Shown piece after piece: positions 7,370 through 51,744 of a stretch of DNA of 57,674 nt. This stretch comes from a virus. Lineage: Duplodnaviria > Caudoviricetes. The notes under the pieces are model-generated. The model was not told where the DNA came from, did not search any database, and was given only the letters and a program-made list of their open reading frames with translations. Made by a program: the position numbers and the translations under genes. The stretch spans positions 1 to 57,674 of IMG/VR virus record IMGVR_UViG_3300023198_000698. One strand, given 5' to 3'. Positions within the stretch are counted from its first letter, which is position 1. Every line of letters starts with the position of its first letter.

Positions 7370-7728
7370 AGCTGCCTTTCAGCGTCTGCCCCATAGACGG
7401 GTGGCGCTTGACGCGGTCGGTCACGACGACGCGGACGTTCTCGTTTATCTCCAGGAGGAACTCCTTCGAGACCCTCTTGAATTTTCCGTTCCGCTCGTTC
7501 GTGCTGATCGCGAGAGCGAGGTCGCGGACCATCTTCTGGTTTATTAGATTCATCTATTTTTTTCATCCTCTCTTTGTGTGCTGCATTGCGTTCCGCCCAC
7601 TCTTTCATGGTCTTGCTCCAGCAAGGATCGCACAAATAAAGCGTGTATTTGTCGTGGCTGGTTTCCGGCCAGCTAAACTTCTCCGACCTAGCCCCGAACT
7701 TCCCGCAAGCTTCACATTTCTCGGGCAT
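7351..7728 (-). CDS. Small Zn-finger protein (CxxC...CxxC); C-terminal half doubtful
   Basis: CEAC and CDPC; first gene after the promoter at 7771-7797; 3' half overlaps the 7359-7553 ORF. Confidence 0.55.
   Translation of the reverse strand: MPEKCEACGKFGARSEKFSWPETSHDKYTLYLCDPCWSKTMKEWAERNAAHKERMKKIDESNKPEDGPRPRSRDQHERAERKIQEGLEGVPPGDKRERPRRRDRPRQAPPVYGADAERQLWVLRR
7359..7553 (-). CDS. Putative small histone-fold protein
   Basis: LINQKMVRDL...KRVSKEFL...VKRH..GQTLK matches the helix1-RVS-helix2-(R/K)T(I/L)K pattern of prokaryotic histones; helix 3 absent. Confidence 0.5.
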   Translation of the reverse strand: MNLINQKMVRDLALAISTNERNGKFKRVSKEFLLEINENVRVVVTDRVKRHPSMGQTLKGSYGS

Positions 7729-7770
7729 GTATTGCCTTTCGTTGTCGGCTGTCAGTAGCCGTTCCTTATG

Positions 7771-7797
7771 TTATCGGCAGATCCTGGAAATACTTTA
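7771..7797 (-). promoter_or_regulatory. Sigma-28/FliA-type promoter
   Basis: Minus strand TAAA-N15-GCCGATAA, perfect consensus; the -35 TAA is the upstream stop codon. Confidence 0.8.
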
Positions 7798-8160
7798 GCG
7801 GCAGAATTTCAGGATGAGCGGATCGGTCGGCTTTGGGCATGGGTTCATCGGCGACTGGTTCGGGGAGACCTGGAACCCAAGCTGGCAGCGGCTTTCGAGG
7901 CCTGAATGATGCTGGCCCACCTTAACCGGCTGTCTGAGCAGCGCATGGCATCCTGAGCAGGACGAGTGCTGCCGCAGCGGCGGCTTCTTGGTGAGCGGCG
8001 TCTGATCGAAGTCGACCCAGACGTGAGCGGAGACCCAGGCGCCGTTCAGGGAGCCGAACTCGCTGATCGCCGGCATGGGTTCGAACTCGATCACCCCGGG
8101 CTTCTCATGGTAAGCCTTCGCCATCTCGACGATCGCGTTCCTGCGTGGTTCGCCCTTCAT
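7795..8160 (-). CDS. Hypothetical protein with Cys-rich C-terminus
   Basis: ATG at 8160 overlaps the upstream TGA; CSGC...C...CPKP. Confidence 0.6.
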   Translation of the reverse strand: MKGEPRRNAIVEMAKAYHEKPGVIEFEPMPAISEFGSLNGAWVSAHVWVDFDQTPLTKKPPLRQHSSCSGCHALLRQPVKVGQHHSGLESRCQLGFQVSPNQSPMNPCPKPTDPLILKFCR

Positions 8161-39867: not shown

Positions 39868-40299
39868 TTATCCTGCGATCGCCTTCGCGAGCGCGATCGT
39901 TTCCGGGTCGTTGGTTACGTCTTCCGGGTTGTGCATCGTGGGTGATAACGTGACCTGCAGCGTTCCGGGTTTTACCCCGTAAGCTCCAGCCTTGGCGGCT
40001 AGGAACTGCCTGAGGTGATTGGCGGATCGGATCTCCTTCGACGTCTTGCCCAGGTCTTCGGTCCTGAAGACGATCCGGACCTTGTCCCAGGAGACGGTCA
40101 GGTTGAATGTCTGATCCGCGAGCGGGTCCCGCGGCTTCGGTGGCGCCGGCGCCTTGTAGCCGATCGCGTCCCGCGCCTGCTCCAGTGCCTTCGGGTCGTG
40201 CTGCTCCAGGAAGGCGCGGGTGTGCGGCGTGAGGATCAGGACCTCGATCGCCTTCTTCATCTTCCGGCGTTGTGCTTCTCTTGCTTCGGTGGTTTTCAT
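39868..40299 (-). CDS. Hypothetical protein
   Basis: 143-aa ORF. Confidence 0.65.
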   Translation of the reverse strand: MKTTEAREAQRRKMKKAIEVLILTPHTRAFLEQHDPKALEQARDAIGYKAPAPPKPRDPLADQTFNLTVSWDKVRIVFRTEDLGKTSKEIRSANHLRQFLAAKAGAYGVKPGTLQVTLSPTMHNPEDVTNDPETIALAKAIAG

Positions 40300-40336
40300 G
40301 ATCTGATATTGGTTGAGTGTTTTCGTTTGATTCGGT

Positions 40337-40975
40337 TTAGCTTCGGCCTTCTTCGCGGACTAGCCGACCGTATTCGGTCAGGTGCCAATGCTTGGAGGTT
40401 AGCCGGATGCGGGGGATCTGGTGAAGGCTGACAGGTTTTTTGTCGCCTTCCACTAGGTAAGCCTTCCACGTTCCGCGGGTTGAGTGGTTGTAGGTGACTC
40501 GGGTGTAAAGTCTCGCGCCGTCGTGTCGGGTGGCTTCGTGCATGTAAGTGTAGCGGCCGAGGCTGGCGCTCTGCTCGGCGGTCAGGTCTACGTTCGGCGC
40601 GTCTTTGAGCGCGAGCCGCTGCTTCTCATGGGGGACCGCGGCCGGCCGCTTGACTGAGTTGCACTCAATTACGACTTCCACATGGGAGATTACGAGGCCC
40701 TTAAACGCATTGGCGGCGGTCTCTTCGAACCACATGGCTCCGGGTTGGAAGGTCTTCAGGCCCTCGATCACGGCGTCCACAGTGGCGGCTGCGGCGATGT
40801 CGTGGCAGATCTGGACGAAGGCCGCATTCTCCGGATGCTTGGCGGCGTCGTTCGTGAAGGTATCCTGGAGGGCGCCGTTCGCGGCTTGGAAAGCCTTCAG
40901 GAGGGCCATATTCCCGCGGTGTCCGTGGGTGGCGAGTGTTTCGACTGCTTGCTTCAGGTATTGTGTGCTATTCAT
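40337..40975 (-). CDS. Hypothetical protein
   Basis: 212 aa with its own promoter and GGAGA SD. Confidence 0.75.
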   Translation of the reverse strand: MNSTQYLKQAVETLATHGHRGNMALLKAFQAANGALQDTFTNDAAKHPENAAFVQICHDIAAAATVDAVIEGLKTFQPGAMWFEETAANAFKGLVISHVEVVIECNSVKRPAAVPHEKQRLALKDAPNVDLTAEQSASLGRYTYMHEATRHDGARLYTRVTYNHSTRGTWKAYLVEGDKKPVSLHQIPRIRLTSKHWHLTEYGRLVREEGRS

Positions 40976-41023
40976 GATCTTTTTCTCCGTCGTTCGTTTG
41001 TTTCGTTTTCCGTCTCTGGTTTA

Positions 41024-41050
41024 CTATCGGCAGATCCCGGCAGGACTTTA
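41024..41050 (-). promoter_or_regulatory. Sigma-28-type promoter
   Basis: TAAA-N15-GCCGATAG. Confidence 0.8.
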
Positions 41051-41311
41051 GTCGGCCGGCGTCCAGTGTTGGAGCTTCATCCCGCGGTAGGCGATCCCGT
41101 AGGCTCGGCGGATGCCTTCCCGGTGTCCGACGCGGAGCGTGATGTCCGTCGCCTCGAGCTCCTCTTTCAGGGATGCCAGGACATGCTCCAGGACTTGCGC
41201 CGTGGTCCGCTGCTTCAGCTCGAAGATGGAAGCGTCCACCGTTCCGAGGCGAATCGCGAAGTGAAGCGCCTTCTCCCAGGGGGCTGAATTGTCTAAGTCT
41301 ATTCGTTTCAT
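41048..41311 (-). CDS. Hypothetical protein
   Basis: 87 aa; CGGAGACAAGATCATG start module. Confidence 0.7.
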   Translation of the reverse strand: MKRIDLDNSAPWEKALHFAIRLGTVDASIFELKQRTTAQVLEHVLASLKEELEATDITLRVGHREGIRRAYGIAYRGMKLQHWTPAD

Positions 41312-41327
41312 GATCTTGTCTCCGTGG

Positions 41328-41639
41328 TTATTCGGCTGTCAGGCCGAGGTTTTCGTCTTCCCATCCGTTCGCGATCGCGTCAACCATGCTGCAGAGGTGG
41401 CTGTTCAGAGCTGATTTGGCTGCGTCCGCGTTGTAAAATCTAGTTGCGTTGTAGCTCGGTCCCGGCTTCGTGATCGGCGCGGTCCTCATGATCGCCGCCC
41501 GGACCTTCCGGACCTGCGGCAGGGTGACCCCGTGAGCCTCGGCGGTGAGGCCGATCATCTGCCGGTCTTCGATCCCGCCTTCGACGAGATCCTTCGCGAT
41601 CGCCGCCGCCTTCGTCCGATTCATTGTCTTCGCTCTCAT
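41328..41639 (-). CDS. Hypothetical protein, possible HTH
   Basis: 103-aa ORF. Confidence 0.6.
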   Translation of the reverse strand: MRAKTMNRTKAAAIAKDLVEGGIEDRQMIGLTAEAHGVTLPQVRKVRAAIMRTAPITKPGPSYNATRFYNADAAKSALNSHLCSMVDAIANGWEDENLGLTAE

Positions 41640-41650
41640 GGGGGCCTCGG

Positions 41651-41752
41651 TTACAGGATCGCCAGGACAACGAAGCCGATCCCGATGATCGTTCCGATGA
41701 TTAGGGTCAGATTCGCCTTCGCGGCTTCGAGCAGGTCTTCGGTTCGGTTCAT
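41651..41752 (-). CDS. 33-aa single-TM peptide (not in the ORF track)
   Basis: MNRTEDLLEAAKANLTLIIGTIIGIGFVVLAIL directly under the promoter at 41798. Confidence 0.6.
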   Translation of the reverse strand: MNRTEDLLEAAKANLTLIIGTIIGIGFVVLAIL

Positions 41753-41797
41753 GTCGTTCTTTCGGTTCGGTCGTTTCGTTATCCGTCTCTGGTTATG

Positions 41798-41824
41798 TTA
41801 TCGGCAGGCCGGCGGGGAACTTTA
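41798..41824 (-). promoter_or_regulatory. Sigma-28-type promoter
   Basis: TAAAGTT...(N15)-GCCGATAA, perfect consensus. Confidence 0.85.
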
Positions 41825-41845
41825 GCCCCCGCCTGCCGTTTTTCT

Positions 41846-42097
41846 TTACCGGACCCCGATCCATTCGTAGGTGGCCAGATCCATGTCGCGGAGGACGTCG
41901 TAGCTCGGGACGATCGCTACGTTCCCGGCCTCGACTTGGGAGGCGAGGAAGAGGACGAGGGCGGTCGCTCGGGGACCTTGGCAGGCGCCGACATGGCGCT
42001 GGAGGCGTTCGAGGCTGATAAAGGGATGCTTCTTGATGGTCGCGATGATTTTTGCGTTCATGATCTTGTCTCCGGTTTTTTCGTTGTTCTCGTTCAC
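41846..42097 (-). CDS. Hypothetical protein (GTG 42097 or ATG 42061)
   Basis: Own promoter and repeated SD module. Confidence 0.7.
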   Translation of the reverse strand: MNENNEKTGDKIMNAKIIATIKKHPFISLERLQRHVGACQGPRATALVLFLASQVEAGNVAIVPSYDVLRDMDLATYEWIGVR

Positions 42098-42104
42098 ACC
42101 TATA

Positions 42105-42131
42105 ATATCGGCAGGACCGCTGGGAACTTTA
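42105..42131 (-). promoter_or_regulatory. Sigma-28-type promoter
   Basis: TAAA-N15-GCCGATAT. Confidence 0.82.
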
Positions 42132-42157
42132 GCGTCCCCGCAGGTCCTTGATTTGTA

Positions 42158-42376
42158 TCAGCTTAGCTCGCGAGCTTTGAGGGTGACGGGGCCGTCTTGG
42201 CGGTCGTATCCGGATCGTTCCAGGTCGCGGCGAGCGAGCTTGACGGCGTCGGCCTTGGTGGCGGCTTCGTATTCGTCCACGCTCGGCTGCTCATGGAGGG
42301 CGGGGAACTTCGCGGTGATCGTGACTTCGTAGCGTTTCATCTGTTTTCCTTCGGTTTTTTCGATTGTTCCGTTCAC
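42158..42376 (-). CDS. Hypothetical protein (GTG 42376 or ATG 42340)
   Basis: Own promoter. Confidence 0.7.
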   Translation of the reverse strand: MNGTIEKTEGKQMKRYEVTITAKFPALHEQPSVDEYEAATKADAVKLARRDLERSGYDRQDGPVTLKARELS

Positions 42377-42383
42377 GCTTATA

Positions 42384-42410
42384 CTATCGGCAGATCCGCG
42401 GGAGACTTTA
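42384..42410 (-). promoter_or_regulatory. Sigma-28-type promoter
   Basis: TAAA-N15-GCCGATAG. Confidence 0.82.
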
Positions 42411-42442
42411 GCGCCTCCCGCAGGCCCCTGCCTTTGAAGATC

Positions 42443-42697
42443 TTAGGCGGCTTCGCCGGCCAGCGTCCCGGCTTCCTCGGCGTTCCGCAGGTAGGCGCGG
42501 ATGTCGGAGATGTTCACATATCCGTCGAGGCGGTCGCCGCATCGGAATTTAGAGCTTGCGAGGTGGCTGCGGAGGTCGTCGAGGCCCTGCTTCACGGCGG
42601 CGAGTTCTTTTTTGGCGGCGGCGGCTTCGAGCTGGAGGCGTTTGATGTAGTTCATCTTGTTTCCTTCGGTCTTCGGTGTTTCGTTTATTCCGTTCAC
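42443..42697 (-). CDS. Hypothetical protein (GTG 42697 or ATG 42655)
   Basis: Own promoter. Confidence 0.7.
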   Translation of the reverse strand: MNGINETPKTEGNKMNYIKRLQLEAAAAKKELAAVKQGLDDLRSHLASSKFRCGDRLDGYVNISDIRAYLRNAEEAGTLAGEAA

Positions 42698-42704
42698 ACC
42701 TATA

Positions 42705-42731
42705 CCATCGGAAGAACTCCGCGGAACTTTA
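42705..42731 (-). promoter_or_regulatory. Sigma-28-type promoter
   Basis: TAAA-N15-TCCGATGG. Confidence 0.72.
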
Positions 42732-42739
42732 GCCTGATT

Positions 42740-44143
42740 TTAATCTTCTCGGAAGTGCTTCTGCCAGAGGCGTCCCAGGACCTCGATCGCGAGGCTCCCC
42801 TGCTTCGCCTTGCCTTCTCCGTCGATCAGCCGGCCGGCGAGGGCGCCCTTGGCCAGGACGCAGCGGTCGACCTCCTCGTCCACGGAGAACATCCGCGGCC
42901 ATATCGCCGTCACTGGATTGAATTGTCCTGCTCGGTGGGCGCGGTCCTCCGCCTGCTCGGCGTCCGCCAGGGTCCAGGGGCGATCGACAAGGATGATGTA
43001 GGACGCCCGGGTGAGGTTCAGGCCGACGCCGCCGGCGTAGGTGAAGGAGACCGCCTTCGATGCGCCATCCTGGAAGCCGTCCACGATCTCCTGCCGGCGC
43101 TTCTTGGTGGTCTCCCCGGTGAAGATCGGGACGCGGAGGCTGGCGCCGATCGTCTCCGCGGTCTCGATGTAGGCCGAGAACAGAAGGACGGAGTGTCCTT
43201 GCCCGATCAGGTCTTGAGCCAGGGTGACGACGTGCGGGACCTTCCAGGCCGAGCAGAGCATCCGGGTTTGCGAGAGCGCGGTGATCGCCAGGGTCCCCGG
43301 GTCTCCGCCTTCCTCCGCCTTCTCTCTGGCGTCGTCGATCGCCCGGGAGAGTGCTCGCCTGTAGTCCACCGCCTCCTCTTGGCTCGGCTCGATCTCTAGG
43401 ATCTGGCGCGTCTTCGGTGGCAGGTCCAGGCAATCCTTCTTCAGCCGGCGGATCGTAAACGGCGCCATGATGCCGTGAAGCTCCTCGATGTTTGTCGCTC
43501 CGGAGTTCTCCCAGAAGTGAATCGTCTTCCCGGTTTTCTTCTGAATCTTCCGCAGGTGGCCGGCGCAATAACGCTTGTCGTAGTCGGTTGATCGGTCGGC
43601 GATCTCATGTCCGAGAGCGCGGAGGATCGGGAACAGCTCACGCGCTCTGCCGTTCCGGGTCGGTGTTCCGGAGACCGCGAAGACTGCGGCAGCATGTTTC
43701 GCCCAATCCAGGAACCGCTTCGTCCGGACGGACTTCATGGACTGGATCTGCTGGACTTCGTCCCCTACCAGAACGAACGGGAAGTCTCCGCCGAACATCT
43801 CGAACATCGGCTCCGGGATGCTGGCCCAGGAGAACGTCGAGACGCGGACCCCGACGATCCGGGCCTCTCGCTGCCAGTTCGTTGTCAGGCTCGCGGGACA
43901 CGCGACGAAGACGGGGAGGTTCATCCATCGCTGGATCTCCAAGCAAGCCAGCAGGACGGAGCGCGTCTTGCCGGTCCCCATCTCGGATGCGAGCAGGATT
44001 CGGCCGTCTCGGAGCATCTGCTCGGCGTCCTCGATCTGGTGGGCGAACGGCTTGGAGCCGTCCTTGAATTCGAAGCCGTGGAGGCCGGCGGTCTCGATCA
44101 GGTTCCAGCGGCTCCACTCTTTGCGGCGTTCTTCGAAGGTCAT
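42740..44143 (-). CDS. SNF2-family helicase
   Basis: EMGTGKT, GDEVQ, SGTP, GVGLNLT, QAEDRAHRAGQ; ATG overlaps the vWA gene TGA. Confidence 0.9.
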   Translation of the reverse strand: MTFEERRKEWSRWNLIETAGLHGFEFKDGSKPFAHQIEDAEQMLRDGRILLASEMGTGKTRSVLLACLEIQRWMNLPVFVACPASLTTNWQREARIVGVRVSTFSWASIPEPMFEMFGGDFPFVLVGDEVQQIQSMKSVRTKRFLDWAKHAAAVFAVSGTPTRNGRARELFPILRALGHEIADRSTDYDKRYCAGHLRKIQKKTGKTIHFWENSGATNIEELHGIMAPFTIRRLKKDCLDLPPKTRQILEIEPSQEEAVDYRRALSRAIDDAREKAEEGGDPGTLAITALSQTRMLCSAWKVPHVVTLAQDLIGQGHSVLLFSAYIETAETIGASLRVPIFTGETTKKRRQEIVDGFQDGASKAVSFTYAGGVGLNLTRASYIILVDRPWTLADAEQAEDRAHRAGQFNPVTAIWPRMFSVDEEVDRCVLAKGALAGRLIDGEGKAKQGSLAIEVLGRLWQKHFRED

Positions 44144-45546
44144 TCCACCGCCTCCAGGCAGGTCCCGAAGTTCGGCTTGCCGTAGCGCCAGTCGTGCTGC
44201 GCGGTCTTGACCCAGAAGCAAGGGACGCCAGGGTTCACGACGGCCGTCATGGGGAGATACATGTCCGAGATCACGATCACCCAGGCCCACTCTTTCGCGC
44301 CGGCTTGGTAGCCGATCTGAGTCAGGGCGGGATTCAGGTCCGTCCCGCCGCGTCCATACCATTCGGTCGGGACCTTGATCGGGAAGTCCGCCGCGGTGAA
44401 CTTCTTCTCTTCGCCGACGATCCGCGTGTCGCACTGGATCAGACTGATCTCTGCGCCGGCGAATTCGCGGACGATCTCTTCGATCCGGGCGAGGGTGCTG
44501 TCCATCTCTTTCGCGGACATGCTACCGGACGTATCGACGAGGACGACGCCCTTCCCATTATTCCGATCGACGTTCGACGGCATGATCACGTCCGAGCGCC
44601 AGGAGGACTTCCGGTTCGCCCGGGAGTAGCTCTGGCCATCGTCGCCGAGTTCCTGCATGAGGTTCTTCAGGTGGTGGAACCACTGGACGCGGTTCTTGGA
44701 GGCGAGCGCCTGCTGCATTTGCTTGGCCCAACCGGGCGAATTGCCGGCCATCTCCGCCGCCAGGATACCCTCGGAGACGATCTCTTCCCAGGTCTGCTCC
44801 GCCTGCTGGACTTCCTCAGGCTTGACTTCGAGGACTTCGCCGACGTCGCCTTCTCCCGCGGTGGCCGGATCGAAGGTCTTTTCGCCTTTGTTTTCGCCCT
44901 GCTCGCTGCCGGGATTCGATTCTCCGCCACTTTGATCGGGTGAGCTGCTAGATCCATCGTCTTTTTGATCGGGATCGCTCTCCGTCGATTCTCCGGACTC
45001 TCCGGGATAGCCGTCTTTATCGTCGAGCTGATCGCCTTCGCCCTGCTCGCCGGCGTCCGATTTGTCCTCTGACTTGTCTTCCGACTTGTCCTGCTCCTGC
45101 TGGCTCTTCTGGAGTTCCTTCAGGTAGAATTCGGCGTCCTTGTTGATCGGCAGCTCGGCGAACGATCCCATCCCCGGGAAGCATCCCAGAGCGCGGAGGC
45201 GATCAGGGCAGCGGCCCTGTATCAGCCAGTTAGCGGCGAGGTCGAAAGCTTGGTTCCGGATCTCCTTGTCGGCGCCGAGGCATCGGAAGTGATGGCCGAG
45301 GAAAACATGAGCGGCTTCGTGAAGGACGACCCAAGCGGCTTCTTCGTTCGTCATCCAGTCCACGAAGGAGCGGTTCCAGAACAGCTCTCCGCCGTTCGTC
45401 GTCATCGTGTCGGTGATCTTGTTGTCTTCGCGGACCGTCCACTGGGCGCGGACAGAGGTGAAGCAGGGGAAGTCTTCGATCAGGCGGTCGAGCGCCCGGG
45501 TGATCTTCGTCTCTGCCTTCGTGATCGTGATTTTGTTTCCGTTCAT
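44140..45546 (-). CDS. Metallopeptidase-vWA protein (DUF2201-like)
   Basis: HEAAH..GH, acidic linker, MIDAS DTSGS, GRGGTD, ISD; ATG at the predicted +1. Confidence 0.88.
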   Translation of the reverse strand: MNGNKITITKAETKITRALDRLIEDFPCFTSVRAQWTVREDNKITDTMTTNGGELFWNRSFVDWMTNEEAAWVVLHEAAHVFLGHHFRCLGADKEIRNQAFDLAANWLIQGRCPDRLRALGCFPGMGSFAELPINKDAEFYLKELQKSQQEQDKSEDKSEDKSDAGEQGEGDQLDDKDGYPGESGESTESDPDQKDDGSSSSPDQSGGESNPGSEQGENKGEKTFDPATAGEGDVGEVLEVKPEEVQQAEQTWEEIVSEGILAAEMAGNSPGWAKQMQQALASKNRVQWFHHLKNLMQELGDDGQSYSRANRKSSWRSDVIMPSNVDRNNGKGVVLVDTSGSMSAKEMDSTLARIEEIVREFAGAEISLIQCDTRIVGEEKKFTAADFPIKVPTEWYGRGGTDLNPALTQIGYQAGAKEWAWVIVISDMYLPMTAVVNPGVPCFWVKTAQHDWRYGKPNFGTCLEAVE

Positions 45547-45553
45547 GGTAGTA

Positions 45554-45580
45554 ATATCGGCGCGGCAGCGGAAAACTTCA
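45554..45580 (-). promoter_or_regulatory. Sigma-28-type promoter (leaderless ATG)
   Basis: TGAAGTTT...(N15)-GCCGATAT. Confidence 0.75.
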
Positions 45581-45626
45581 CCTTTTATTGTCAGAAATTT
45601 GTGCCTCTTTTTCTGACATTGAGTGT

Positions 45627-45980
45627 CTACTTTTTGGACAGCTCTCGGAGCGCGGCTTCTAGCTGGTTCACCGCCTCGGACAGGGTCCCGGGCAGCGCCT
45701 GAGAATGCCGGCGTCCGGATCGCGGCGGCGGGATCTCCATCTCGATCGTCTCGATCGCCGACCTGATCAGACCCTCGGCGGTGGGCGGCGGGGTGGTGAT
45801 GTGGCTCGCGACCCAAGCCTTGCAGTCCCGGAGCGTCGTCCGGTCATGCAGCGGCTTGCATTCGGCGCCCTGGAAAACTGCGTAGCAACGGACATGGTCG
45901 TCGCTCAGATTCACGATGCAGATGTCCGGATAGGCCGACGACCTCCAAGCGGTCGGGGTAGTCTTTTTCCATGTTGCCAT
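45627..45980 (-). CDS. Hypothetical protein
   Basis: 117 aa; TAATG coupling. Confidence 0.65.
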   Translation of the reverse strand: MATWKKTTPTAWRSSAYPDICIVNLSDDHVRCYAVFQGAECKPLHDRTTLRDCKAWVASHITTPPPTAEGLIRSAIETIEMEIPPPRSGRRHSQALPGTLSEAVNQLEAALRELSKK

Positions 45981-46564
45981 TATTCGGCCTCCTGGACTTC
46001 GCGGATCGCCTTCAGGACCTTCGCGAGGTTCTTGTTGTTCACTTGGACGGAGACGATCGACTCGCCAGACGTCGGCTGCATGTCAACCTTGACCGCGTGA
46101 GCCGGGAAGAAGACGGAGTCGCCCCTGTTCTCGGTGTCCGCGATCTCCGGGAAGACTTTCCCGATGATCGCCGTCCGCTCTCGGAGGCGGAAGCTGGCCT
46201 GCTTCTCCAGGGTCTCCCGGTTGTGCATGTCGAGGGTCAAGCGGTCGAAGTTCTGGGCGAACTCTCTGGCGATCTTGAATGTCTTTTCGTCTGTAACCTT
46301 CCGGATCTTGCGGAGACCTCCGCGGCCGTAGCTCTTGCGCCATTCGATCTCTGCGGTGTCGCTGATGTGGTTCCAGCGGACGGCGATCAGCTCGCGGACA
46401 TGGCGACCGAAGGAGCCGCTCTTCTCCAGGGTGACGAAGCCCCGGGGGATCTTGGTCCCTTTGTTAGCGATCATCTCGGGCTGGCCGGACGGCATGTAGC
46501 CTTTAACGGTGTTCGCGATCTGGTCGATGATGCTGTTCACTGTTTTGATCTGGTCTAGGTTCAT
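45980..46564 (-). CDS. Hypothetical protein (MNLDQIK...)
   Basis: Start reassigned to 46564 after an A-rich leader. Confidence 0.7.
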   Translation of the reverse strand: MNLDQIKTVNSIIDQIANTVKGYMPSGQPEMIANKGTKIPRGFVTLEKSGSFGRHVRELIAVRWNHISDTAEIEWRKSYGRGGLRKIRKVTDEKTFKIAREFAQNFDRLTLDMHNRETLEKQASFRLRERTAIIGKVFPEIADTENRGDSVFFPAHAVKVDMQPTSGESIVSVQVNNKNLAKVLKAIREVQEAE

Positions 46565-46629
46565 GGTCTTTTCTTTCTTGGTTGGGGAAGGGAGGCTTCC
46601 TTGCCTGCCCTTCCCGGGTTGGGCAGTTC

Positions 46630-47541
46630 TTAGAATTGGAAATTGTCGAGTTCGTCGATCGTGTCGGCGGCGACCTGCTTCACTTCGTTCCGGACCGTCC
46701 GGGACTCGCGGACCGCGTCCGGGTTCATCGCGCCGAACTTGTCGCTGATCCGCTTCAGGGTCTCGTCGAGCTTCACGGAGCCGACGACGTTCAGGCCCTG
46801 CATCTCGTCGCACAATTCCCAGACGTTTGTCAGGAGGCTATCCTTAAAATGCTTGTCGGTGTTCGGCTGATTGCACTCTTCCAGCTTCTTGACGACGTGG
46901 GCGAGCTTCTTGGAGACCCGGGCGAGAACGTCGCGCTGGGATTCGAAGAGCTGCTCTCGGACGGAGGCTTCCTGGCTGGCTTTGATCTTCTCGACTTCTT
47001 CGGCCGGAAGCGAGGCGAGGCGGATGTCGGAGGCGCGGGAGACCGCGGAGGTCCGGACGTTGAAGCGGAACTTGCCGGCGAAGCCAGCCTTGTCCGGGAA
47101 GTTGACTTCCGGGGTGAGACCGTTCAGGCGCTTGTGGACCTTCGCGGCGATCTCGTCGTAGCGGCCGACCGCGGCTTGAACGGCGTCTTCGAACTTCGCC
47201 TTCGCGACTTCGAGCGCGTCCTTGGTTTTCAGGTAGCGGCCGACGGGGACCAAGCGCATCCCGTTATCTTCCCACGGGAGGCTGCTCCCGATCCAGACGG
47301 CTCTCGCTTCGCTGCGAGCTGCCATGATGTCCTTACGGTCGGCGGGGTCCATCGCTTTCAGGACCGTCGAGATCGCGTCTTCGTCGGCGCCGTGAGTCGC
47401 TGCGGCTTCCTTGGAAAGCTTGTCGCATTTGACGTTGCCGGCGTAGGTTCCGACGCTGAGCTTGACTAGGACGCATTGTTCGCTGATGTCTTTTGTTTGG
47501 TTCATGATCTTGTCTCCGTTCTTTGTTTGGTTTTCCGTCAC
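46630..47541 (-). CDS. Helical protein typical of AAA/vWA loci (DUF3150-like)
   Basis: SLPWEDNGMRLVP..Y; own promoter. Confidence 0.65.
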   Translation of the reverse strand: MTENQTKNGDKIMNQTKDISEQCVLVKLSVGTYAGNVKCDKLSKEAAATHGADEDAISTVLKAMDPADRKDIMAARSEARAVWIGSSLPWEDNGMRLVPVGRYLKTKDALEVAKAKFEDAVQAAVGRYDEIAAKVHKRLNGLTPEVNFPDKAGFAGKFRFNVRTSAVSRASDIRLASLPAEEVEKIKASQEASVREQLFESQRDVLARVSKKLAHVVKKLEECNQPNTDKHFKDSLLTNVWELCDEMQGLNVVGSVKLDETLKRISDKFGAMNPDAVRESRTVRNEVKQVAADTIDELDNFQF

Positions 47542-47548
47542 TGGTTTA

Positions 47549-47575
47549 CTATCGGCTAATCTGCTGAAAGCTTTA
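47549..47575 (-). promoter_or_regulatory. Sigma-28-type promoter
   Basis: TAAA-N15-GCCGATAG. Confidence 0.82.
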
Positions 47576-47579
47576 GGAT

Positions 47580-47789
47580 TTATTCGCTTGCCCAGTCGAT
47601 CACCGCGTTCGCGTCTGCCGTGTGCCTCGCCGCCGAGGTCTGGGTCGCGACGATCTGCTTTGCGCTGCTCTTCGCGAATTGGGCGAGCTGTCCGCCTTTG
47701 AAGGTGATCAGGAGCGCCACTGCGAGGAGGAGGATCGAGCCGGTTTTTTTCATCTTGCTGCTTTCGTTTTTTTCGTTGTTTCCGTTCAC
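47580..47789 (-). CDS. Small secreted or membrane protein
   Basis: MKKTGSILLLAVALLITF signal-like sequence from ATG 47753. Confidence 0.65.
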   Translation of the reverse strand: MNGNNEKNESSKMKKTGSILLLAVALLITFKGGQLAQFAKSSAKQIVATQTSAARHTADANAVIDWASE

Positions 47790-47796
47790 AGTAATA

Positions 47797-47823
47797 ATAT
47801 CGGCCAGATCTGGCTATTCTTTA
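47797..47823 (-). promoter_or_regulatory. Sigma-28-type promoter
   Basis: TAAA-N15-GCCGATAT. Confidence 0.82.
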
Positions 47824-48101
47824 GGGTTTTTCTCTCTTTTCTCGTAAGTGCCTGATCCGGTGAGGTTTGTCTGGAAGACTCCAGGAACGCCTTCCCAGGT
47901 CGCTTTGCAGTCAGGGCAGGAGCAAGGCTCGATCCGCTTGGCGGCGGCTCGGAGGTCCGCCCGGGTCCATTCGTGGAGCGCGTGGACGCCGTCGCAGGCC
48001 CAGCCGGTCTTCAGGTTCGCCCAGAAGCCGTCGCCGGTTCCGGCCTCGCTCCAGACCTCGGAGATCCGGGGATCTTTTCGGAGCTGTTCGAGTATGGTCA
48101 T
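47814..48101 (-). CDS. Hypothetical protein with CxCxxC
   Basis: 95 aa; GAAAGG SD. Confidence 0.65.
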   Translation of the reverse strand: MTILEQLRKDPRISEVWSEAGTGDGFWANLKTGWACDGVHALHEWTRADLRAAAKRIEPCSCPDCKATWEGVPGVFQTNLTGSGTYEKREKNPKE

Positions 48102-48181
48102 GTTGCGCCTTTCGATTTAAAGGGTCCGGGAGGAGGAGGACGGAGAGGCCTCCCTCCCTCCCGGCAGCAGGCGTCCGCGGA

Positions 48182-49210
48182 TCAGGCGGCTCGCTTGCCT
48201 TCCCAGATTTGATACTCGGTCGTCGCGACGATCTCAGGGCAAGCCTTGGCGAGCTGCCGGATGAAGAAGGAGGCTTGCTCGGTCGCCCAGCGCATCGCGT
48301 AGGTCAGGAACTTCTTGGCCTTCGTCGGCGTCTCTTTCGCCTTGCGGACGAGGAAGAGCGAGAGCGCGAACGTCACGTCCACCTTGTCGGGTAGTCTGCA
48401 GCCGGCCGGATCTTTCAGGATCTCGTCTTCGGTCGGCGCGTTCTTCCAGATCTTCACCCATCCCATGAATTCGTTCGCGGCTTCGCTGCCGACGCAGCCG
48501 GCGACCACTGCGCGGATGATATCGCCGACCGGGAAGTTCACCGTCTCGCTGATCTGGTGAAGCGTGTCGGCCATCTCCCAGGTCCGCTTCGTGACGCTGC
48601 CAAGCTCGATCATCTCGCCGCCGGCGGGACCGTTCCAGACGTCGTTCCGATACTGCGCGAAGGCTCGCATTGCGGGAGAGATCCCGGCGTCTTCGGCCCA
48701 GCTATCCCAAGCTTCCAGGGCCTGCTCGGAGTCGGTTTCCATGTAGATGTGAACCATCCGCGAAGCGGCAGCTTTGGACATCATGTTCGTCCCGACGTCG
48801 GTCGCCTGATTGCCGGCGATCACCATCCGGGCGCCGGATTTGATCTTGCGGCCGAAGACTTGGCGGTCGAGGACGATCTGGAGGCTCATGTTCTGAACCT
48901 GCATCTTGGCGCGGTCGTATTCGTCCAGGAAGACGATCGACTTCTCGTCGTCGGCGCCGATGCCTTGGAAGGGGATCAGGTCCGTCATGAGATACTTCAG
49001 GCGCTCGCCGTCCGGGAACGGGATCGCGAAGTCCGAAGGCTCCTTGTCACCCAGGCGGACGTCGTAAAGGTTCCATTTGAGGCGCTTCGCGATCTGCGCG
49101 ACGATCGCCGACTTGCCGGTTCCAGGTTTGCACCAGACCGCGACGGGGATGTTTGCCTTCAGGCAGAGGGCGATCGCTCGGGCGGTTTGTTCTTGGTTCA
49201 GTTTTTGCAT
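48182..49210 (-). CDS. AAA+ ATPase (MoxR/AAA_5-like)
   Basis: Walker A PGTGKS, Walker B VFLDEYDRA, IAGN, SRM, KRTWE. Confidence 0.9.
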   Translation of the reverse strand: MQKLNQEQTARAIALCLKANIPVAVWCKPGTGKSAIVAQIAKRLKWNLYDVRLGDKEPSDFAIPFPDGERLKYLMTDLIPFQGIGADDEKSIVFLDEYDRAKMQVQNMSLQIVLDRQVFGRKIKSGARMVIAGNQATDVGTNMMSKAAASRMVHIYMETDSEQALEAWDSWAEDAGISPAMRAFAQYRNDVWNGPAGGEMIELGSVTKRTWEMADTLHQISETVNFPVGDIIRAVVAGCVGSEAANEFMGWVKIWKNAPTEDEILKDPAGCRLPDKVDVTFALSLFLVRKAKETPTKAKKFLTYAMRWATEQASFFIRQLAKACPEIVATTEYQIWEGKRAA

Positions 49211-49255
49211 GATCTTGTCTCCGTTTCGTTGTTTCGTTGTCCGTCTCTGCTTAAG

Positions 49256-49282
49256 CTATCGGCATCCTTGCCGAAAGCTTGA
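49256..49282 (-). promoter_or_regulatory. Sigma-28-type promoter
   Basis: TCAA-N15-GCCGATAG. Confidence 0.78.
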
Positions 49283-49296
49283 GATGTTTTTTCTGA

Positions 49297-49695
49297 TTAA
49301 TGATCTCCCGCGGGACCCTTGCGATAGCCAATGCTGCGGACTTCGAACTGTATCGTCCCCGGGATCTGGGTCACTGTCGCGACCGTCGCGGTCATGAATT
49401 CGATTGCTGCCAGGACGATCTCGATCTCTCCGACCAAGATGTTCGCGAAGATCGGGGCCTTCCAGTCGGCCGGATTGGCGACCGCGGTGAAGGCAGTCTT
49501 CAGGGCGCCGACCGTGAACTTGCCGCAGGTCTGCGCGTTCATCTCGGCGGCTTGCGCGGCGTCCAGCTCACGATAGAGGCGTTCCAGTCTTTCGGTGGCT
49601 CCGCAGACCCCGCCGGCGTCCAGGACTTGGGAGGCGGCGTAGCGGTTCTGGTTCTCGATCTCGATCTGCTTTTTGATTTGTTCGGTTTTGGTCAT
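49297..49695 (-). CDS. Hypothetical protein
   Basis: 132 aa; own promoter and SD module. Confidence 0.72.
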   Translation of the reverse strand: MTKTEQIKKQIEIENQNRYAASQVLDAGGVCGATERLERLYRELDAAQAAEMNAQTCGKFTVGALKTAFTAVANPADWKAPIFANILVGEIEIVLAAIEFMTATVATVTQIPGTIQFEVRSIGYRKGPAGDH

Positions 49696-49740
49696 GATCT
49701 TGTCTCCGGTTTTTGTTCTTGTTTCCCGTCTCTGGTTATA

Positions 49741-49767
49741 ACATCGGCAGGCCCCAAGATTACTTTA
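49741..49767 (-). promoter_or_regulatory. Sigma-28-type promoter
   Basis: TAAA-N15-GCCGATGT. Confidence 0.8.
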
Positions 49768-49786
49768 GGCCCACCGTGAGATTTGT

Positions 49787-49975
49787 TTAGGCAATGCGAT
49801 CGAGGATCGCGACCGAGGACCTGATCCGGGACGCTTCGGCGGCGAGGTCGTCGATCTTGCGGAGCAGGGCTCCGGTGCCTTGTTGGTGACGGCCGCAGGC
49901 GATGTTCGCCGCGTGGTGAGTCTTCCGTAGTTCCGCTTTGATCTCTTCGAGTCTGTTTTCGAGCTGGCTTTTCAT
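49787..49975 (-). CDS. Hypothetical protein
   Basis: 62 aa; own promoter. Confidence 0.68.
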   Translation of the reverse strand: MKSQLENRLEEIKAELRKTHHAANIACGRHQQGTGALLRKIDDLAAEASRIRSSVAILDRIA

Positions 49976-50020
49976 CGTTTTTCCTTCGGTTCGTCGTTTC
50001 GTTTCCCGTCTCTGGTGGTA

Positions 50021-50048
50021 ACATCGGTAGCTTCTGGCGAAAGCTTTA
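50021..50048 (-). promoter_or_regulatory. Sigma-28-type promoter
   Basis: TAAA-N16-ACCGATGT. Confidence 0.68.
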
Positions 50049-50051
50049 GGA

Positions 50052-50300
50052 TTATTTCACCCATTCGGCGCCGGCGGTCGTTAGCTTGTTTCCGGCCCAG
50101 CCGTCCGTCACCGTGTATTCGATGATTCCAGCCTCACGGAGTTCGGCGAGCGCGGCCTTCGTGGTGGGGCGGAGGTTCGGGGCCTTGACCCAGCCGGTCC
50201 CGTGCGCGTTGTCGTGGGCGGTGGCGAGGATCGCTTGCTGGGTTTTATTGAGCTTTTTCATCTTTTTGCCTTCGGTCTTCGTTGTCTCGTTCTCTGTCAC
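50052..50300 (-). CDS. Small winged-helix-like protein (GTG 50300 or ATG 50261)
   Basis: KLNKTQQAIL...LAELREAGII...LTTAG. Confidence 0.65.
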   Translation of the reverse strand: MTENETTKTEGKKMKKLNKTQQAILATAHDNAHGTGWVKAPNLRPTTKAALAELREAGIIEYTVTDGWAGNKLTTAGAEWVK

Positions 50301-50307
50301 TGGTTTA

Positions 50308-50334
50308 ATATCGGCAGCTTCTGGCGAGACCTGA
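50308..50334 (-). promoter_or_regulatory. Sigma-28-type promoter
   Basis: TCAG-N15-GCCGATAT. Confidence 0.7.
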
Positions 50335-50348
50335 AGGATTATTTCAGA

Positions 50349-50591
50349 TTATTCGACCCCGCTGAATCCGCCGCCCTTGACCTCGGACCTCATGGCTGCT
50401 GTGCTGGCGAGATCGGTGGCCTTCCAGGTCCTCCATTCCTGCTCTGCCGCGGCCTTCGTTTCCTTGGGTTCCCCTACGGTCCATCCCATCGACCGATCGA
50501 CGGCGAACCATTTTCCGGTCTTGGGATGCTTCGCCGTGCTGGGAGTCAGCTCTGCGGCTATTGCTTTGGCTTTTTCGAAGAGTGCGTTCAT
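50349..50591 (-). CDS. Hypothetical protein
   Basis: 80 aa; AAGGAAAGGA SD. Confidence 0.68.
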   Translation of the reverse strand: MNALFEKAKAIAAELTPSTAKHPKTGKWFAVDRSMGWTVGEPKETKAAAEQEWRTWKATDLASTAAMRSEVKGGGFSGVE

Positions 50592-50604
50592 GGGTTCCTT
50601 TCCT

Positions 50605-50736
50605 TTAGTGCTTTTTGAGTTCGCGGACGATCCCGGCCCAATGCCACTTGACCTTGTGGTCGAGGGCGAGGCAGTAGGTGTGTAGGATGATTCTCCCCGT
50701 CCGGGTCGTCGCCAGTTTTGATTTTATCGCTCTCAC
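50605..50736 (-). CDS. 43-aa leaderless basic peptide
   Basis: GTG at the predicted +1 of the 50744 promoter, in frame to the stop at 50605. Confidence 0.5.
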   Translation of the reverse strand: MRAIKSKLATTRTGRIILHTYCLALDHKVKWHWAGIVRELKKH

Positions 50737-50743
50737 GATAATA

Positions 50744-50770
50744 CCATCGGCATCCCGCAGAAAAACTTCA
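50744..50770 (-). promoter_or_regulatory. Sigma-28-type promoter
   Basis: TGAAGTTT...(N15)-GCCGATGG. Confidence 0.72.
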
Positions 50771-50951
50771 GGAGTTTTTTTCACTTTCCCCGGTGTCCAT
50801 TGTTGAGACAGTTCCTGTCCCAAAAGTAGACCTGGATTCCGGGAGTGCAAGATGGAAGCGTGAGAAGCTGCAGGAAGGGGGCGCCGGCGCGCCCAGGCTC
50901 GCCAGGAGACGCCGGCCGACCGTCTGAAGGGGATCAGGGCAGGCGGACCGC

Positions 50952-51185
50952 TTAAAGCCTCCTGAGTGATCCGTCCGGACGCCATTGGTAGGCGCGTCCG
51001 TCGTGCATCTTGAAGGGTTTAGCGGAATCGGATGGAATCCCGTTATGGAAGCCGGCGCGATGCAGTAGGGCGAACCTGGACGGAATCTGCCGGTGGAGTC
51101 CAGGGGCGCGGTCCGCCCGGAAGCGGCTGCGGATCGGGGCGCCTTTGTCTGGCGTGAATATCGGGTGATAGTGTGATGCTTTCAT
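50952..51185 (-). CDS. Hypothetical basic protein
   Basis: 77 aa; GAAAGG SD. Confidence 0.55.
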   Translation of the reverse strand: MKASHYHPIFTPDKGAPIRSRFRADRAPGLHRQIPSRFALLHRAGFHNGIPSDSAKPFKMHDGRAYQWRPDGSLRRL

Positions 51186-51198
51186 GGTGTGCCTTTCG

Positions 51199-51744
51199 TT
51201 ATGTTGAGATCGGATTGAGGAAGGAGAAGCTGATCAGCTCCTGCCCTGTCCCGGTAAAGTTCGTGAAGGTCTCCGTCCCCAGGCTGAACGGGATCGACTT
51301 CCGGCCGGCGTTCTGCTCTTCCCACTGGGAAAGGAGCCGGTATGGAATCCAGACGACCTTCGGCGGGGTGTCGTGTTTTGCGTGGAATGCTTTGGGGCGA
51401 AACTCCCAGAGGACCCCGGAGATCGCGCCGGCCCAGTACCAGAGCGCCAGGGACTCGAACTGCTTCGTGGTGAGTCCGGACTTCTTGACCTTGAAGCCGA
51501 GGCGCGGCTCCGCGGTGCTCTTCGCCTCGATCCAGATCGCCCTCCCATCGACGACGCGGGTCCCGGTGTAGTCCAGGCAGTCGTTCCGGAGCTGGATCAC
51601 GACCGGCTTCCCTCCGATCCGGATCACCTTGGTCGGCGGCTCGATCTTGCGGAGGACGATGATCCGGTTCATCTCCGCCCAGCCGGCGGAGAGGTCTATC
51701 CGGCGCTCGAAGTCTTGCCCGGGGGTTTGTGGCTTAGTCTTCAT
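51199..51744 (-). CDS. recU: RecU-like Holliday junction resolvase
   Basis: G..FE..I, LRKIEPP, DYTG...WIEAKST, Q...L. Confidence 0.78.
   Translation of the reverse strand: MKTKPQTPGQDFERRIDLSAGWAEMNRIIVLRKIEPPTKVIRIGGKPVVIQLRNDCLDYTGTRVVDGRAIWIEAKSTAEPRLGFKVKKSGLTTKQFESLALWYWAGAISGVLWEFRPKAFHAKHDTPPKVVWIPYRLLSQWEEQNAGRKSIPFSLGTETFTNFTGTGQELISFSFLNPIST

Follow-up and report, generated by a model that had tools for sequence, protein, structure and literature searches.

We analysed a viral DNA of 57,674 bases (IMG/VR virus record IMGVR_UViG_3300023198_000698), which comprises the whole record and is called the window in the following. Our interest was an array of promoters at which a start codon lies on the predicted first base of the transcript. 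The record is linear with an estimated completeness of about 71%, and all genes of the window are carried by the minus strand. Matches to PHROG and Pfam (terminase, portal, major head protein, tape measure, primase-helicase and exonuclease) identify a tailed phage. The promoters belong to a block of mostly small genes at 40.3-50.8 kb, which is flanked by a resolvase/HNH region and the packaging genes and also encodes a SNF2-type helicase, a DUF2201/VWA-like protein and a MoxR-like AAA ATPase.

Between 41016 and 50736 the minus strand holds 13 promoter-plus-leader units (Table 1), which carry GTG (7 units), ATG (1 unit) or GAG (5 units) at one and the same position. An earlier note on this DNA had listed these codons, and upon re-reading the sequence all 13 were found on the minus strand at the coordinates it gave: GTG at 42097, 42376, 42697, 47541, 47789, 50300 and 50736, ATG at 45546, and GAG at 41016, 41789, 49247, 49732 and 50012. 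In six GTG units a second start, an ATG, follows at distances of 36, 36, 42, 36, 36 and 39 nt, while in the GAG units the ATG follows after 41, 37, 37, 37 and 37 nt, as had been described. All eight start codons at this position open the frame of their gene, all five GAG leaders are out of frame, and the six N-terminal tags agree with those reported. The statement that the codon lies 7 nt after the -10 box is correct if the box is taken as GATnnT. Measured from the CCGAT of the promoter, the codon begins 9 nt downstream in 9 of the 13 units, i.e. in the eight with a start codon and in 41016, and 10 nt downstream in the remaining four GAG units, which have one extra base. A Shine-Dalgarno (SD) sequence, GGAG or AAGG(A), precedes the ATG by 6-9 nt in five of the six GTG leaders and is weak in 47789.

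The repeated promoter element consists of CTAAAG, 15 nt and CCGAT, the latter mostly as GCCGATA. For sigma-28 (FliA) the consensus TAAAGTTT-n11-GCCGATAA is given in Table 1 of PMC2859248, and E. coli FliA sites are listed in PMC4183435. We compared these elements with the 13 units and a fourteenth one outside the range covered before. The -35 element resembles TAAAGTTT: TAAAG is exact in 9 of the 14 units at a spacing of 15 nt and also in unit 3 at 16 nt, while the other four are 1-2 bases off (CTGAAG, CTCAAG, GTGAAG and CTTCAG). The -10 element matches GCCGATAA, including the A at -11, with CCGAT present in 14 of 14 units and the preceding G in 12. TAAAG and CCGAT are separated by 15 nt in 12 units and by 16 nt in two, where 15 nt equals the 11 nt between the octamers of the consensus. 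The same TAAAG, GCCGAT, 11-nt octamer gap and A at -11 characterize the sigma-28 promoters that drive late flagellar genes, among them tar and aer of E. coli and fliC of P. aeruginosa (PMC2859248, PMC12784957, PMC4183435), and the element positions are identical to those described for the fliC promoter (PMC12784957). Judged by these elements, the promoters are predicted to be of the sigma-28/FliA type and not of the sigma-70 type; dependence on FliA itself we infer. The earlier note had not recognised this type. Unlike their flagellar counterparts, the phage promoters form a 14-fold array in front of small phage genes and replication-type genes, and eight of them have a start codon at the predicted +1.

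The exact pattern TAAAG-N15-CCGAT occurs in the window nine times on the minus strand and not at all on the plus strand, and the reversed pattern is absent as well. Allowing up to one mismatch, 15 matches were obtained, all on the minus strand, compared to 1.87 ± 1.38 in shuffled sequences; none of 100 shuffles reached 15. Twelve of these matches are units described here. Two other promoter classes were considered. A search for sigma-70-like promoters in 40200-51300 returned none, with 1.7 being expected, and since the -35 element also misfits, a sigma-70 promoter was rejected. Promoters of a phage single-subunit RNA polymerase were dropped because no such gene is among the PHROG and Pfam matches of the window. 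Literature searches, which covered titles and abstracts, gave no description of sigma-28 promoter arrays in phages.

For P. aeruginosa fliC, the promoter elements are given as (-36)TCTAAAG(-30) and (-15)GCCGATAA(-8), with A-11 flipped out (PMC12784957). When this numbering is applied to the window, +1 falls on the first base of the codon in the nine cluster units in which it begins 9 nt past CCGAT. From published sigma-28 geometry, transcription would thus be predicted to start on the codon itself. Reported sigma-28 starts lie 6-8 nt past the octamer, such that published promoters differ by 1-2 nt (PMC2859248 compared with PMC12784957).

For two genes of the window the codon at the predicted +1 is the sole possible start, and at both the promoter occupies the space in which an SD sequence would lie. 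The clearer one is ATG 45546, which opens the DUF2201/VWA-like protein. Here, a Pfam DUF2201_N match begins at residue 12 and is aligned to profile position 3, seven homologues (33-59% identity) have N-termini within 0-8 residues of the ATG, and the next ATG follows only 141 nt downstream. The homologue with 59% identity is annotated with valine as first residue at the same N-terminal position. Given this true N-terminus and the lack of an upstream SD sequence, the unit appears to be of purely leaderless design with ATG 45546 as the only start, the transcript end being predicted. The second gene is a 43-codon open reading frame (ORF) that begins with GTG 50736 and belongs to a conserved small-protein family (144 representatives at E <= 0.001). 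Short homologues begin at the same residue, one of them with valine, which is consistent with a leaderless start, although starts vary within the family. The case of GTG 50736 thus appears weaker than that of ATG 45546. The 43-residue product has the core KxKLAxTxxGRIxLHxxCLxxDHKxxWHWAGIxREL, which characterizes a large family of 40-60-residue proteins without a Pfam family; the motif is also repeated within a few long proteins.

The same design was found in other, unrelated phages. Scanning IMG/VR with TAAAG-N15-CCGAT gave at least 112 stretches, while the same letters at a spacing of 14 nt gave 19; many of the matches are single sites within genes, such that this excess has to be taken with caution. 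Four other phage records of 32-50% G+C, L267 (G002), L007 (G003), L184 (G004) and L220 (G005), contain 11, 3, 7 and 5 sigma-28-type sites and in each case no site of the reversed pattern. L007 has one N14 site beside three N15 sites and represents the only real sigma-28-type array among the 19 N14 stretches. Of the 26 distinct promoters in these records, 10, distributed over three of the four, have an ATG at offset 9 after CCGAT, whereas at any other offset from 0 to 19 an ATG occurs at most once. All ten ATGs open frames of 59 to more than 130 codons, which compares to 17.7% of the 2443 ATGs in the same loci that open at least 59 codons. In three of the ten, Pfam domains begin at residue 10-20 (DUF4116 twice and an IS200-like transposase). 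For these ten, as for the two genes above, the codon at +1 is the sole possible start. Five further sites carry AGG, mostly AGGAG, at +1, with a nearby ATG following in at least four of them; a single GTG site is probably a chance match inside a gene and was not counted. No sigma70_r2 match above cut-off was obtained in the four records. An ATG fixed at a single position past the promoter makes sense only if transcripts begin there, or just before, and ribosomes use this ATG. The evidence for leaderless starts from these phages is stronger than that from the window, and ribosomes probably initiate at a start codon located at +1 of such promoters.

The remaining question is how the leaders that also have an SD-led ATG are read. 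They are in frame in 6 of 6 cases with GTG and in 0 of 5 cases with GAG, which for independent units corresponds to a probability of 1/462 (hypergeometric count). That shared ancestry weakens these statistics, as had been cautioned, turned out to be true: the units are homologous mosaics and not 11 independent trials. The 5' end GTGAACGG is common to four GTG leaders, and a length of 37 nt to four GAG leaders. At the same time GTG and GAG units contain near-identical segments. The leaders of 42097 (GTG, 36 nt) and 49732 (GAG, 37 nt) are identical over their last 18 nt, those of 47541 (GTG, 36 nt) and 41016 (GAG, 41 nt) are 94% identical in their 5' part with the same -10 region, and the promoters of 50300 (GTG, 39 nt) and 50012 (GAG, 37 nt) are 82% identical. 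A single ancestral split therefore cannot explain the pattern. Furthermore, the only two in-frame leaders of the 'ACGG' leader family are also its only two with GTG, and unit 42697 preserved the frame across a length difference of 6 nt.

The leaders are almost free of T. The 11 leaders contain 14 T in 414 nt, six of which are the T of the GTG; in the 34 nt before the ATG the T content is 2.1%, compared to 14.8% before 66 other genes. Since all stop codons as well as the start codons ATG, GTG and TTG contain a T, the leaders have no stop in any of the three frames and are devoid of other starts, and opening the frame of the gene means just that the leader length is divisible by 3. They are also little structured: in 12 of the 13 cluster units the first 45 nt fold with 0 to -2.8 kcal/mol, the background being -10.4 ± 4.4 kcal/mol. 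A conceivable binding of a CsrA-type protein to the leaders, at their two GGA motifs, was also considered and then dropped.

We propose the following course of events. A sigma-28-type holoenzyme, either host-encoded or containing an unrecognised phage sigma factor, would start transcription 8 nt past the GCCGATnn octamer, i.e. where the GTG, ATG or GAG codon begins. A message headed by AUG or GUG would be bound directly by ribosomes in leaderless initiation, on which alone the genes at 45546 and 50736 would rely. The other eleven cluster units provide an unstructured, A-rich and almost T-free leader with an ordinary SD-led ATG. Because the leader has no stop codon, a ribosome coming from the 5' end would read through the SD sequence and the ATG. 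Out of frame, this would block the real start and make junk protein; such starts would therefore be removed by changing GTG to GAG, or the leader length would be adjusted. In frame, it would be harmless, since the same protein with 12-14 additional N-terminal residues would be made. We assign a probability of roughly 0.5 to this reading, in which ribosomes start at the 5' GUG and out-of-frame starts are purged.

A number of observations weigh against it. Given the mosaic relations, about 3-4 independent GTG/GAG contrasts are left, and with a chance of about one-third for each to be in frame, a rough p of 0.01-0.04 results; the frame rule therefore seems suggestive, not overwhelming. All six dual leaders have GTG and never ATG, and in E. 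coli leaderless GTG reaches less than 10% of ATG (cited in PMC4633059). The GAG leaders are as T-poor and unstructured as the GTG leaders. Low structure therefore benefits SD-led initiation no less than leaderless initiation, and neither trait argues for leaderless use in particular. The E. coli aer transcript starts 6 bp after the octamer (PMC2859248), and with this spacing the start would precede the GTG by 1-2 nt, making the messages near-leaderless and the match inexact. At GTG 50736, the frame is open upstream to GTG 50784 and ATG 50985. Of 139 homologues with up to 150 residues, 59 have at least 10 extra N-terminal residues and 19 have 3-9, while 61 start at or after the GTG position (up to 2 extra residues allowed).

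The sigma factor and a relative of the phage add to these points. A domain search of the window proteins, i.e. of a 71%-complete record, revealed no sigma-28 gene; sigma-factor domains gave sub-threshold matches only, in the AAA ATPase and in a helix-turn-helix protein adjoining the terminase. In five Verrucomicrobiota genomes with distant portal relatives no FliA_WhiG match was above the cut-off (best 117.7 compared to 189.6 bits). The host is expected to possess a sigma factor of the FliA type, except if such a factor is encoded in the 29% of the phage genome that the record lacks. The relative, L020, encodes a DUF2201 protein and a portal that are 41% and 48% identical to those of the window, and no sigma-factor domain over cut-off was found in its record. 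Four leaders homologous to those of the window, with the layout GACGGTAGAA...GAACGAACGAA...ATG, are present in L020 at 743, 1192, 2544 and 3825 (plus strand). The promoters in front of them are sigma-70-like (TGGACT-N17-TATTGT type), and GACGG is found at the seventh base past the -10 hexamer. As a family, the leaders therefore either predate the promoter type or are independent of it. At the homologous place L020 has CTG, ATG, ACG and CCG, all out of frame; the ATG, 41 nt from the gene start, would begin a 19-codon ORF that overlaps the latter. By promoter geometry this ATG probably lies just upstream of the transcript, such that we take it as a caveat and not as a counter-example.

The frame pattern might also have arisen from descent and chance, in that in a few ancestral leaders GTG was by chance associated with a length divisible by 3 and GAG with one of 37 nt, with the 5' GUG remaining unused and the SD-led ATG being the sole start. 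The one family of four GTGAACGG leaders, the common length of four GAG leaders, the conservation of the SD-led ATG in both classes and the exclusive use of a codon that is weak in leaderless initiation in E. coli (PMC4633059) all fit such an origin. However, GTG and GAG units are mutual nearest neighbours in promoter, 5' leader or 3' leader, the in-frame lengths of 36, 39 and 42 nt require separate frame-keeping events, and the +1 position is used as sole start in this phage and in others. We therefore consider this explanation unlikely.

The earlier note had proposed selection for both initiation modes, giving two isoforms or stress-proof translation, or else a purging of out-of-frame leaderless starts. 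Its leaderless part is supported by the two genes that have no other start in keeping with their homologues, and by the 10 offset-9 ATGs at 26 promoters elsewhere; a selected dual mode would leave the same traces as purging. For such a mode, in which the in-frame 5' GUG and the SD-led AUG would both be positively selected to yield two isoforms or translation that withstands SD impairment, speaks that none of the six in-frame leaders has drifted to a non-start codon, and that within the 'ACGG' family GTG is limited to the in-frame members. In the annotation of one of three homologues of the 303-residue protein of unit 7, the conserved Met is preceded in frame by extra N-terminal residues (MKEEKN), and a 5'-terminal AUG in E. 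coli is able to bring ribosomes to a downstream cistron (PMC4965119). In addition, an IS200-like Y1 transposase of an unrelated phage (L301:1535-1957, plus strand) starts with ATG at +1 of a sigma-28-type promoter, followed immediately by GGAG and an in-frame ATG 12 nt later, which resembles a compact version of the arrangement in the window. On the other hand, the numbers are small, five homologous genes lack the longer form, and the tags are alike only through their homologous leader DNA, with no conservation seen at the amino-acid level. Since purging alone predicts the same pattern, we judge it, with the longer isoform as a by-product, to be more economical, and find positive selection of both starts rather improbable.

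Very improbable is a misplaced transcription start, be it at the conserved GACGG that follows two bases later, as predicted for L020, or through a phage factor with another geometry, whereby the GTG would not be the 5' end and its frame irrelevant: the GACGG position in the L020 leaders and the 1-2 nt variation of published sigma-28 starts are in line with it, but the offset-9 ATGs (10 of 26 elsewhere and 45546 here) are sensible only if transcripts start at or just before them, and no sigma-28 spacing described in PMC2859248 or PMC12784957 puts the start 10 nt past the octamer.

Purging of out-of-frame leaderless starts can be set against known leaderless systems. In mycobacteria an ATG or GTG at the 5' end is necessary and sufficient (PMC4633059), and lambda cI is named as naturally leaderless (PMC4965119). 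Like the lambda cI message from PRM and messages following the mycobacterial 'RTG at +1' rule, the phage messages would have ATG or GTG at the predicted first base and no SD sequence before it. They differ from them by being tied to one alternative-sigma promoter class and, in six units, by an additional SD-led start downstream in the same frame. Closer to these six are E. coli mRNAs with a 5'-terminal AUG upstream of the gene (5'-uAUG mRNAs), among which SD-led ones function in both modes (Beck, Fleming and Janssen 2016, PMC4965119). Both combine a 5'-terminal start codon with an SD-led start on one transcript, which is predicted for the phage. None of the 5' ORFs tested there in E. coli ran into the gene in its own frame: each either ended upstream of the gene or used a different frame, and yielded a distinct small peptide (PMC4965119). 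In the phage, by contrast, the 5' codon is GUG, lies always in the frame of the gene without a stop before the ATG (6 of 6) and would give a longer isoform; out-of-frame cases are absent. The dual leaders share the SD-led coding sequence (clear in five of six, weak in 47789), but since all six have GTG in place of a 5' AUG we do not file them as members of this class; they would act like it only if the host accepts a 5' GUG. The in-frame, GUG-based and rule-bound version in a phage promoter array is new relative to the known leaderless and 5'-uAUG mRNAs.

Should ribosomes read the 5' GUG, the cluster represents a natural experiment with thirteen near-identical units that differ in the +2 base (T or A) and in leader length. 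Their apparent sorting by frame would then provide direct evidence, at the genome level, for recognition of a transcript-initial start codon by ribosomes in an uncultivated host, and the units would form a ready-made set of reporter constructs. For annotation, we offer the rule that a codon 9 nt past CCGAT is a candidate start; in the present record the gene caller's product extends the 43-codon gene by 16 codons through its promoter. Sigma-28-type arrays in phages, often with leaderless ATGs, would furthermore make the expression of phage genes depend on whether the host is motile. Tentatively, as a possible rather than a probable generalization, several unrelated phage lineages may run gene blocks from sigma-28-type promoters and produce transcripts whose very first base belongs to a start codon. 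In that case the flagellar checkpoint of the host, via active FliA in motile cells, would gate expression, which would be independent of SD sequences; in the present phage this design would be fused with SD-led starts under the in-frame rule, giving two isoforms by two mechanisms.

Close relatives in which the frame rule could be followed were sought in several ways. No match among GenBank phages was obtained by megablast of the region, and neither a single-protein search with the AAA ATPase nor a portal alignment revealed a close relative in IMG/VR. Aligning the DUF2201 protein led to distant IMG/VR loci only (L020 with 41% identity; L021 and L022 with about 30%). In L021 the homologue (at about 9998, plus strand, 31% identical) has its ATG six bases past a perfect TATAAT and also looks leaderless. 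The leader pattern AGACGG..AACGAAAC had 119 single matches, none of them related, the ribosome-binding-site cassette CGGAGACAAGATCATG had 68 matches in unrelated phages, and the promoter-plus-leader pattern had 101 matches, none with a -35 element except one chance match. In GTDB genomes 172 portal matches were confirmed, the best ones being 39-44% identical; among the best 80 of the 172, 60 titles name Verrucomicrobiota or Limisphaerales. In the loci of these 80 no sigma-28 motif was found within 1.02 Mb, and an nhmmer model of the leader gave no match.

Table 1. Promoter-leader units, predicted hairpins and ribosome-site cassettes of the window. Offset, distance from CCGAT to the codon.
Feature	Position	Strand	Promoter	Offset (nt)	Codon	Leader (nt)	Downstream start and remarks
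Unit 1	50605..50771	-	CTGAAG-N15-CCGAT	9	GTG 50736		opens 43-codon ORF 50605-50736; no SD, no second start
Unit 2	50259..50336	-	CTTCAG-N16-CCGAT	9	GTG 50300	39	in-frame ATG 50261; tag MTENETTKTEGKK
Unit 3	49973..50049	-	CTAAAG-N16-CCGAT	10	GAG 50012	37	out-of-frame ATG 49975
Unit 4	49693..49768	-	CTAAAG-N15-CCGAT	10	GAG 49732	37	GGAG-led out-of-frame ATG 49695; hairpin
Unit 5	49208..49283	-	CTCAAG-N15-CCGAT	10	GAG 49247	37	GGAG-led out-of-frame ATG 49210 (MoxR-like AAA ATPase)
Unit 6	47751..47824	-	CTAAAG-N15-CCGAT	9	GTG 47789	36	in-frame ATG 47753; tag MNGNNEKNESSK; weak SD
Unit 7	47503..47576	-	CTAAAG-N15-CCGAT	9	GTG 47541	36	GGAG-led in-frame ATG 47505; tag MTENQTKNGDKI
Unit 8	44140..45581	-	GTGAAG-N15-CCGAT (45547-45581)	9	ATG 45546		only start of DUF2201/VWA-like protein (44140-45546)
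Unit 9	42653..42732	-	CTAAAG-N15-CCGAT	9	GTG 42697	42	AAGGA-led in-frame ATG 42655; tag MNGINETPKTEGNK
Unit 10	42338..42411	-		9	GTG 42376	36	AAGGA-led in-frame ATG 42340; tag MNGTIEKTEGKQ; hairpin
Unit 11	42059..42132	-		9	GTG 42097	36	GGAG-led in-frame ATG 42061; tag MNENNEKTGDKI; hairpin
Unit 12	41750..41825	-		10	GAG 41789	37	out-of-frame ATG 41752; hairpin
Unit 13	40973..41051	-		9	GAG 41016	41	GGAG-led out-of-frame ATG 40975
Unit 14 (beyond the range of the earlier note)	7726..7798	-	CTAAAG-N15-CCGAT		AAC 7763	35	structured leader; out-of-frame ATG 7728
Hairpin	49733-49790	-					fold prediction
Hairpin	42377-42430	-					fold prediction
Hairpin	42098-42150	-					fold prediction
Hairpin	41790-41850	-					fold prediction
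Cassette GGAGACAAGATCATG	41297-41311	-					exact match
Cassette GGAGACAAGATCATG	42047-42061	-					exact match
Cassette GGAGACAAGATCATG	47491-47505	-					exact match
Cassette GGAGACAAGATCATG	49196-49210	-					exact match
Cassette GGAGACAAGATCATG	49681-49695	-					exact match

A strong hairpin is predicted in 4 of the 14 units, with the TAAAG of the -35 element in the loop and the promoter spacer as 3' arm. Folding energies range from -19.7 to -30.9 kcal/mol and z scores from -3.3 to -5.5, with unit 4 (-19.7 kcal/mol, z -3.3) and unit 10 (-30.9 kcal/mol, z -5.5) marking the extremes and units 11 and 12 having z scores of -4.5 and -4.2. The stem sequences differ from unit to unit while the pairing is maintained. 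These structures may represent 3'-end or terminator hairpins that belong to the gene upstream and are accommodated within the promoter of the following one.

An Rfam search of 40000-51500 gave no relevant match, and no tRNA genes were found in the window. The two strands are strongly asymmetric in composition: in a genome of 60% G+C, the coding strand contains only 15.9% T, next to 24.1% A, 30.4% C and 29.6% G. The 15-base ribosome-site cassette GGAGACAAGATCATG is present in five exact copies, one of which precedes gene 41048-41311, a gene without a promoter of its own.

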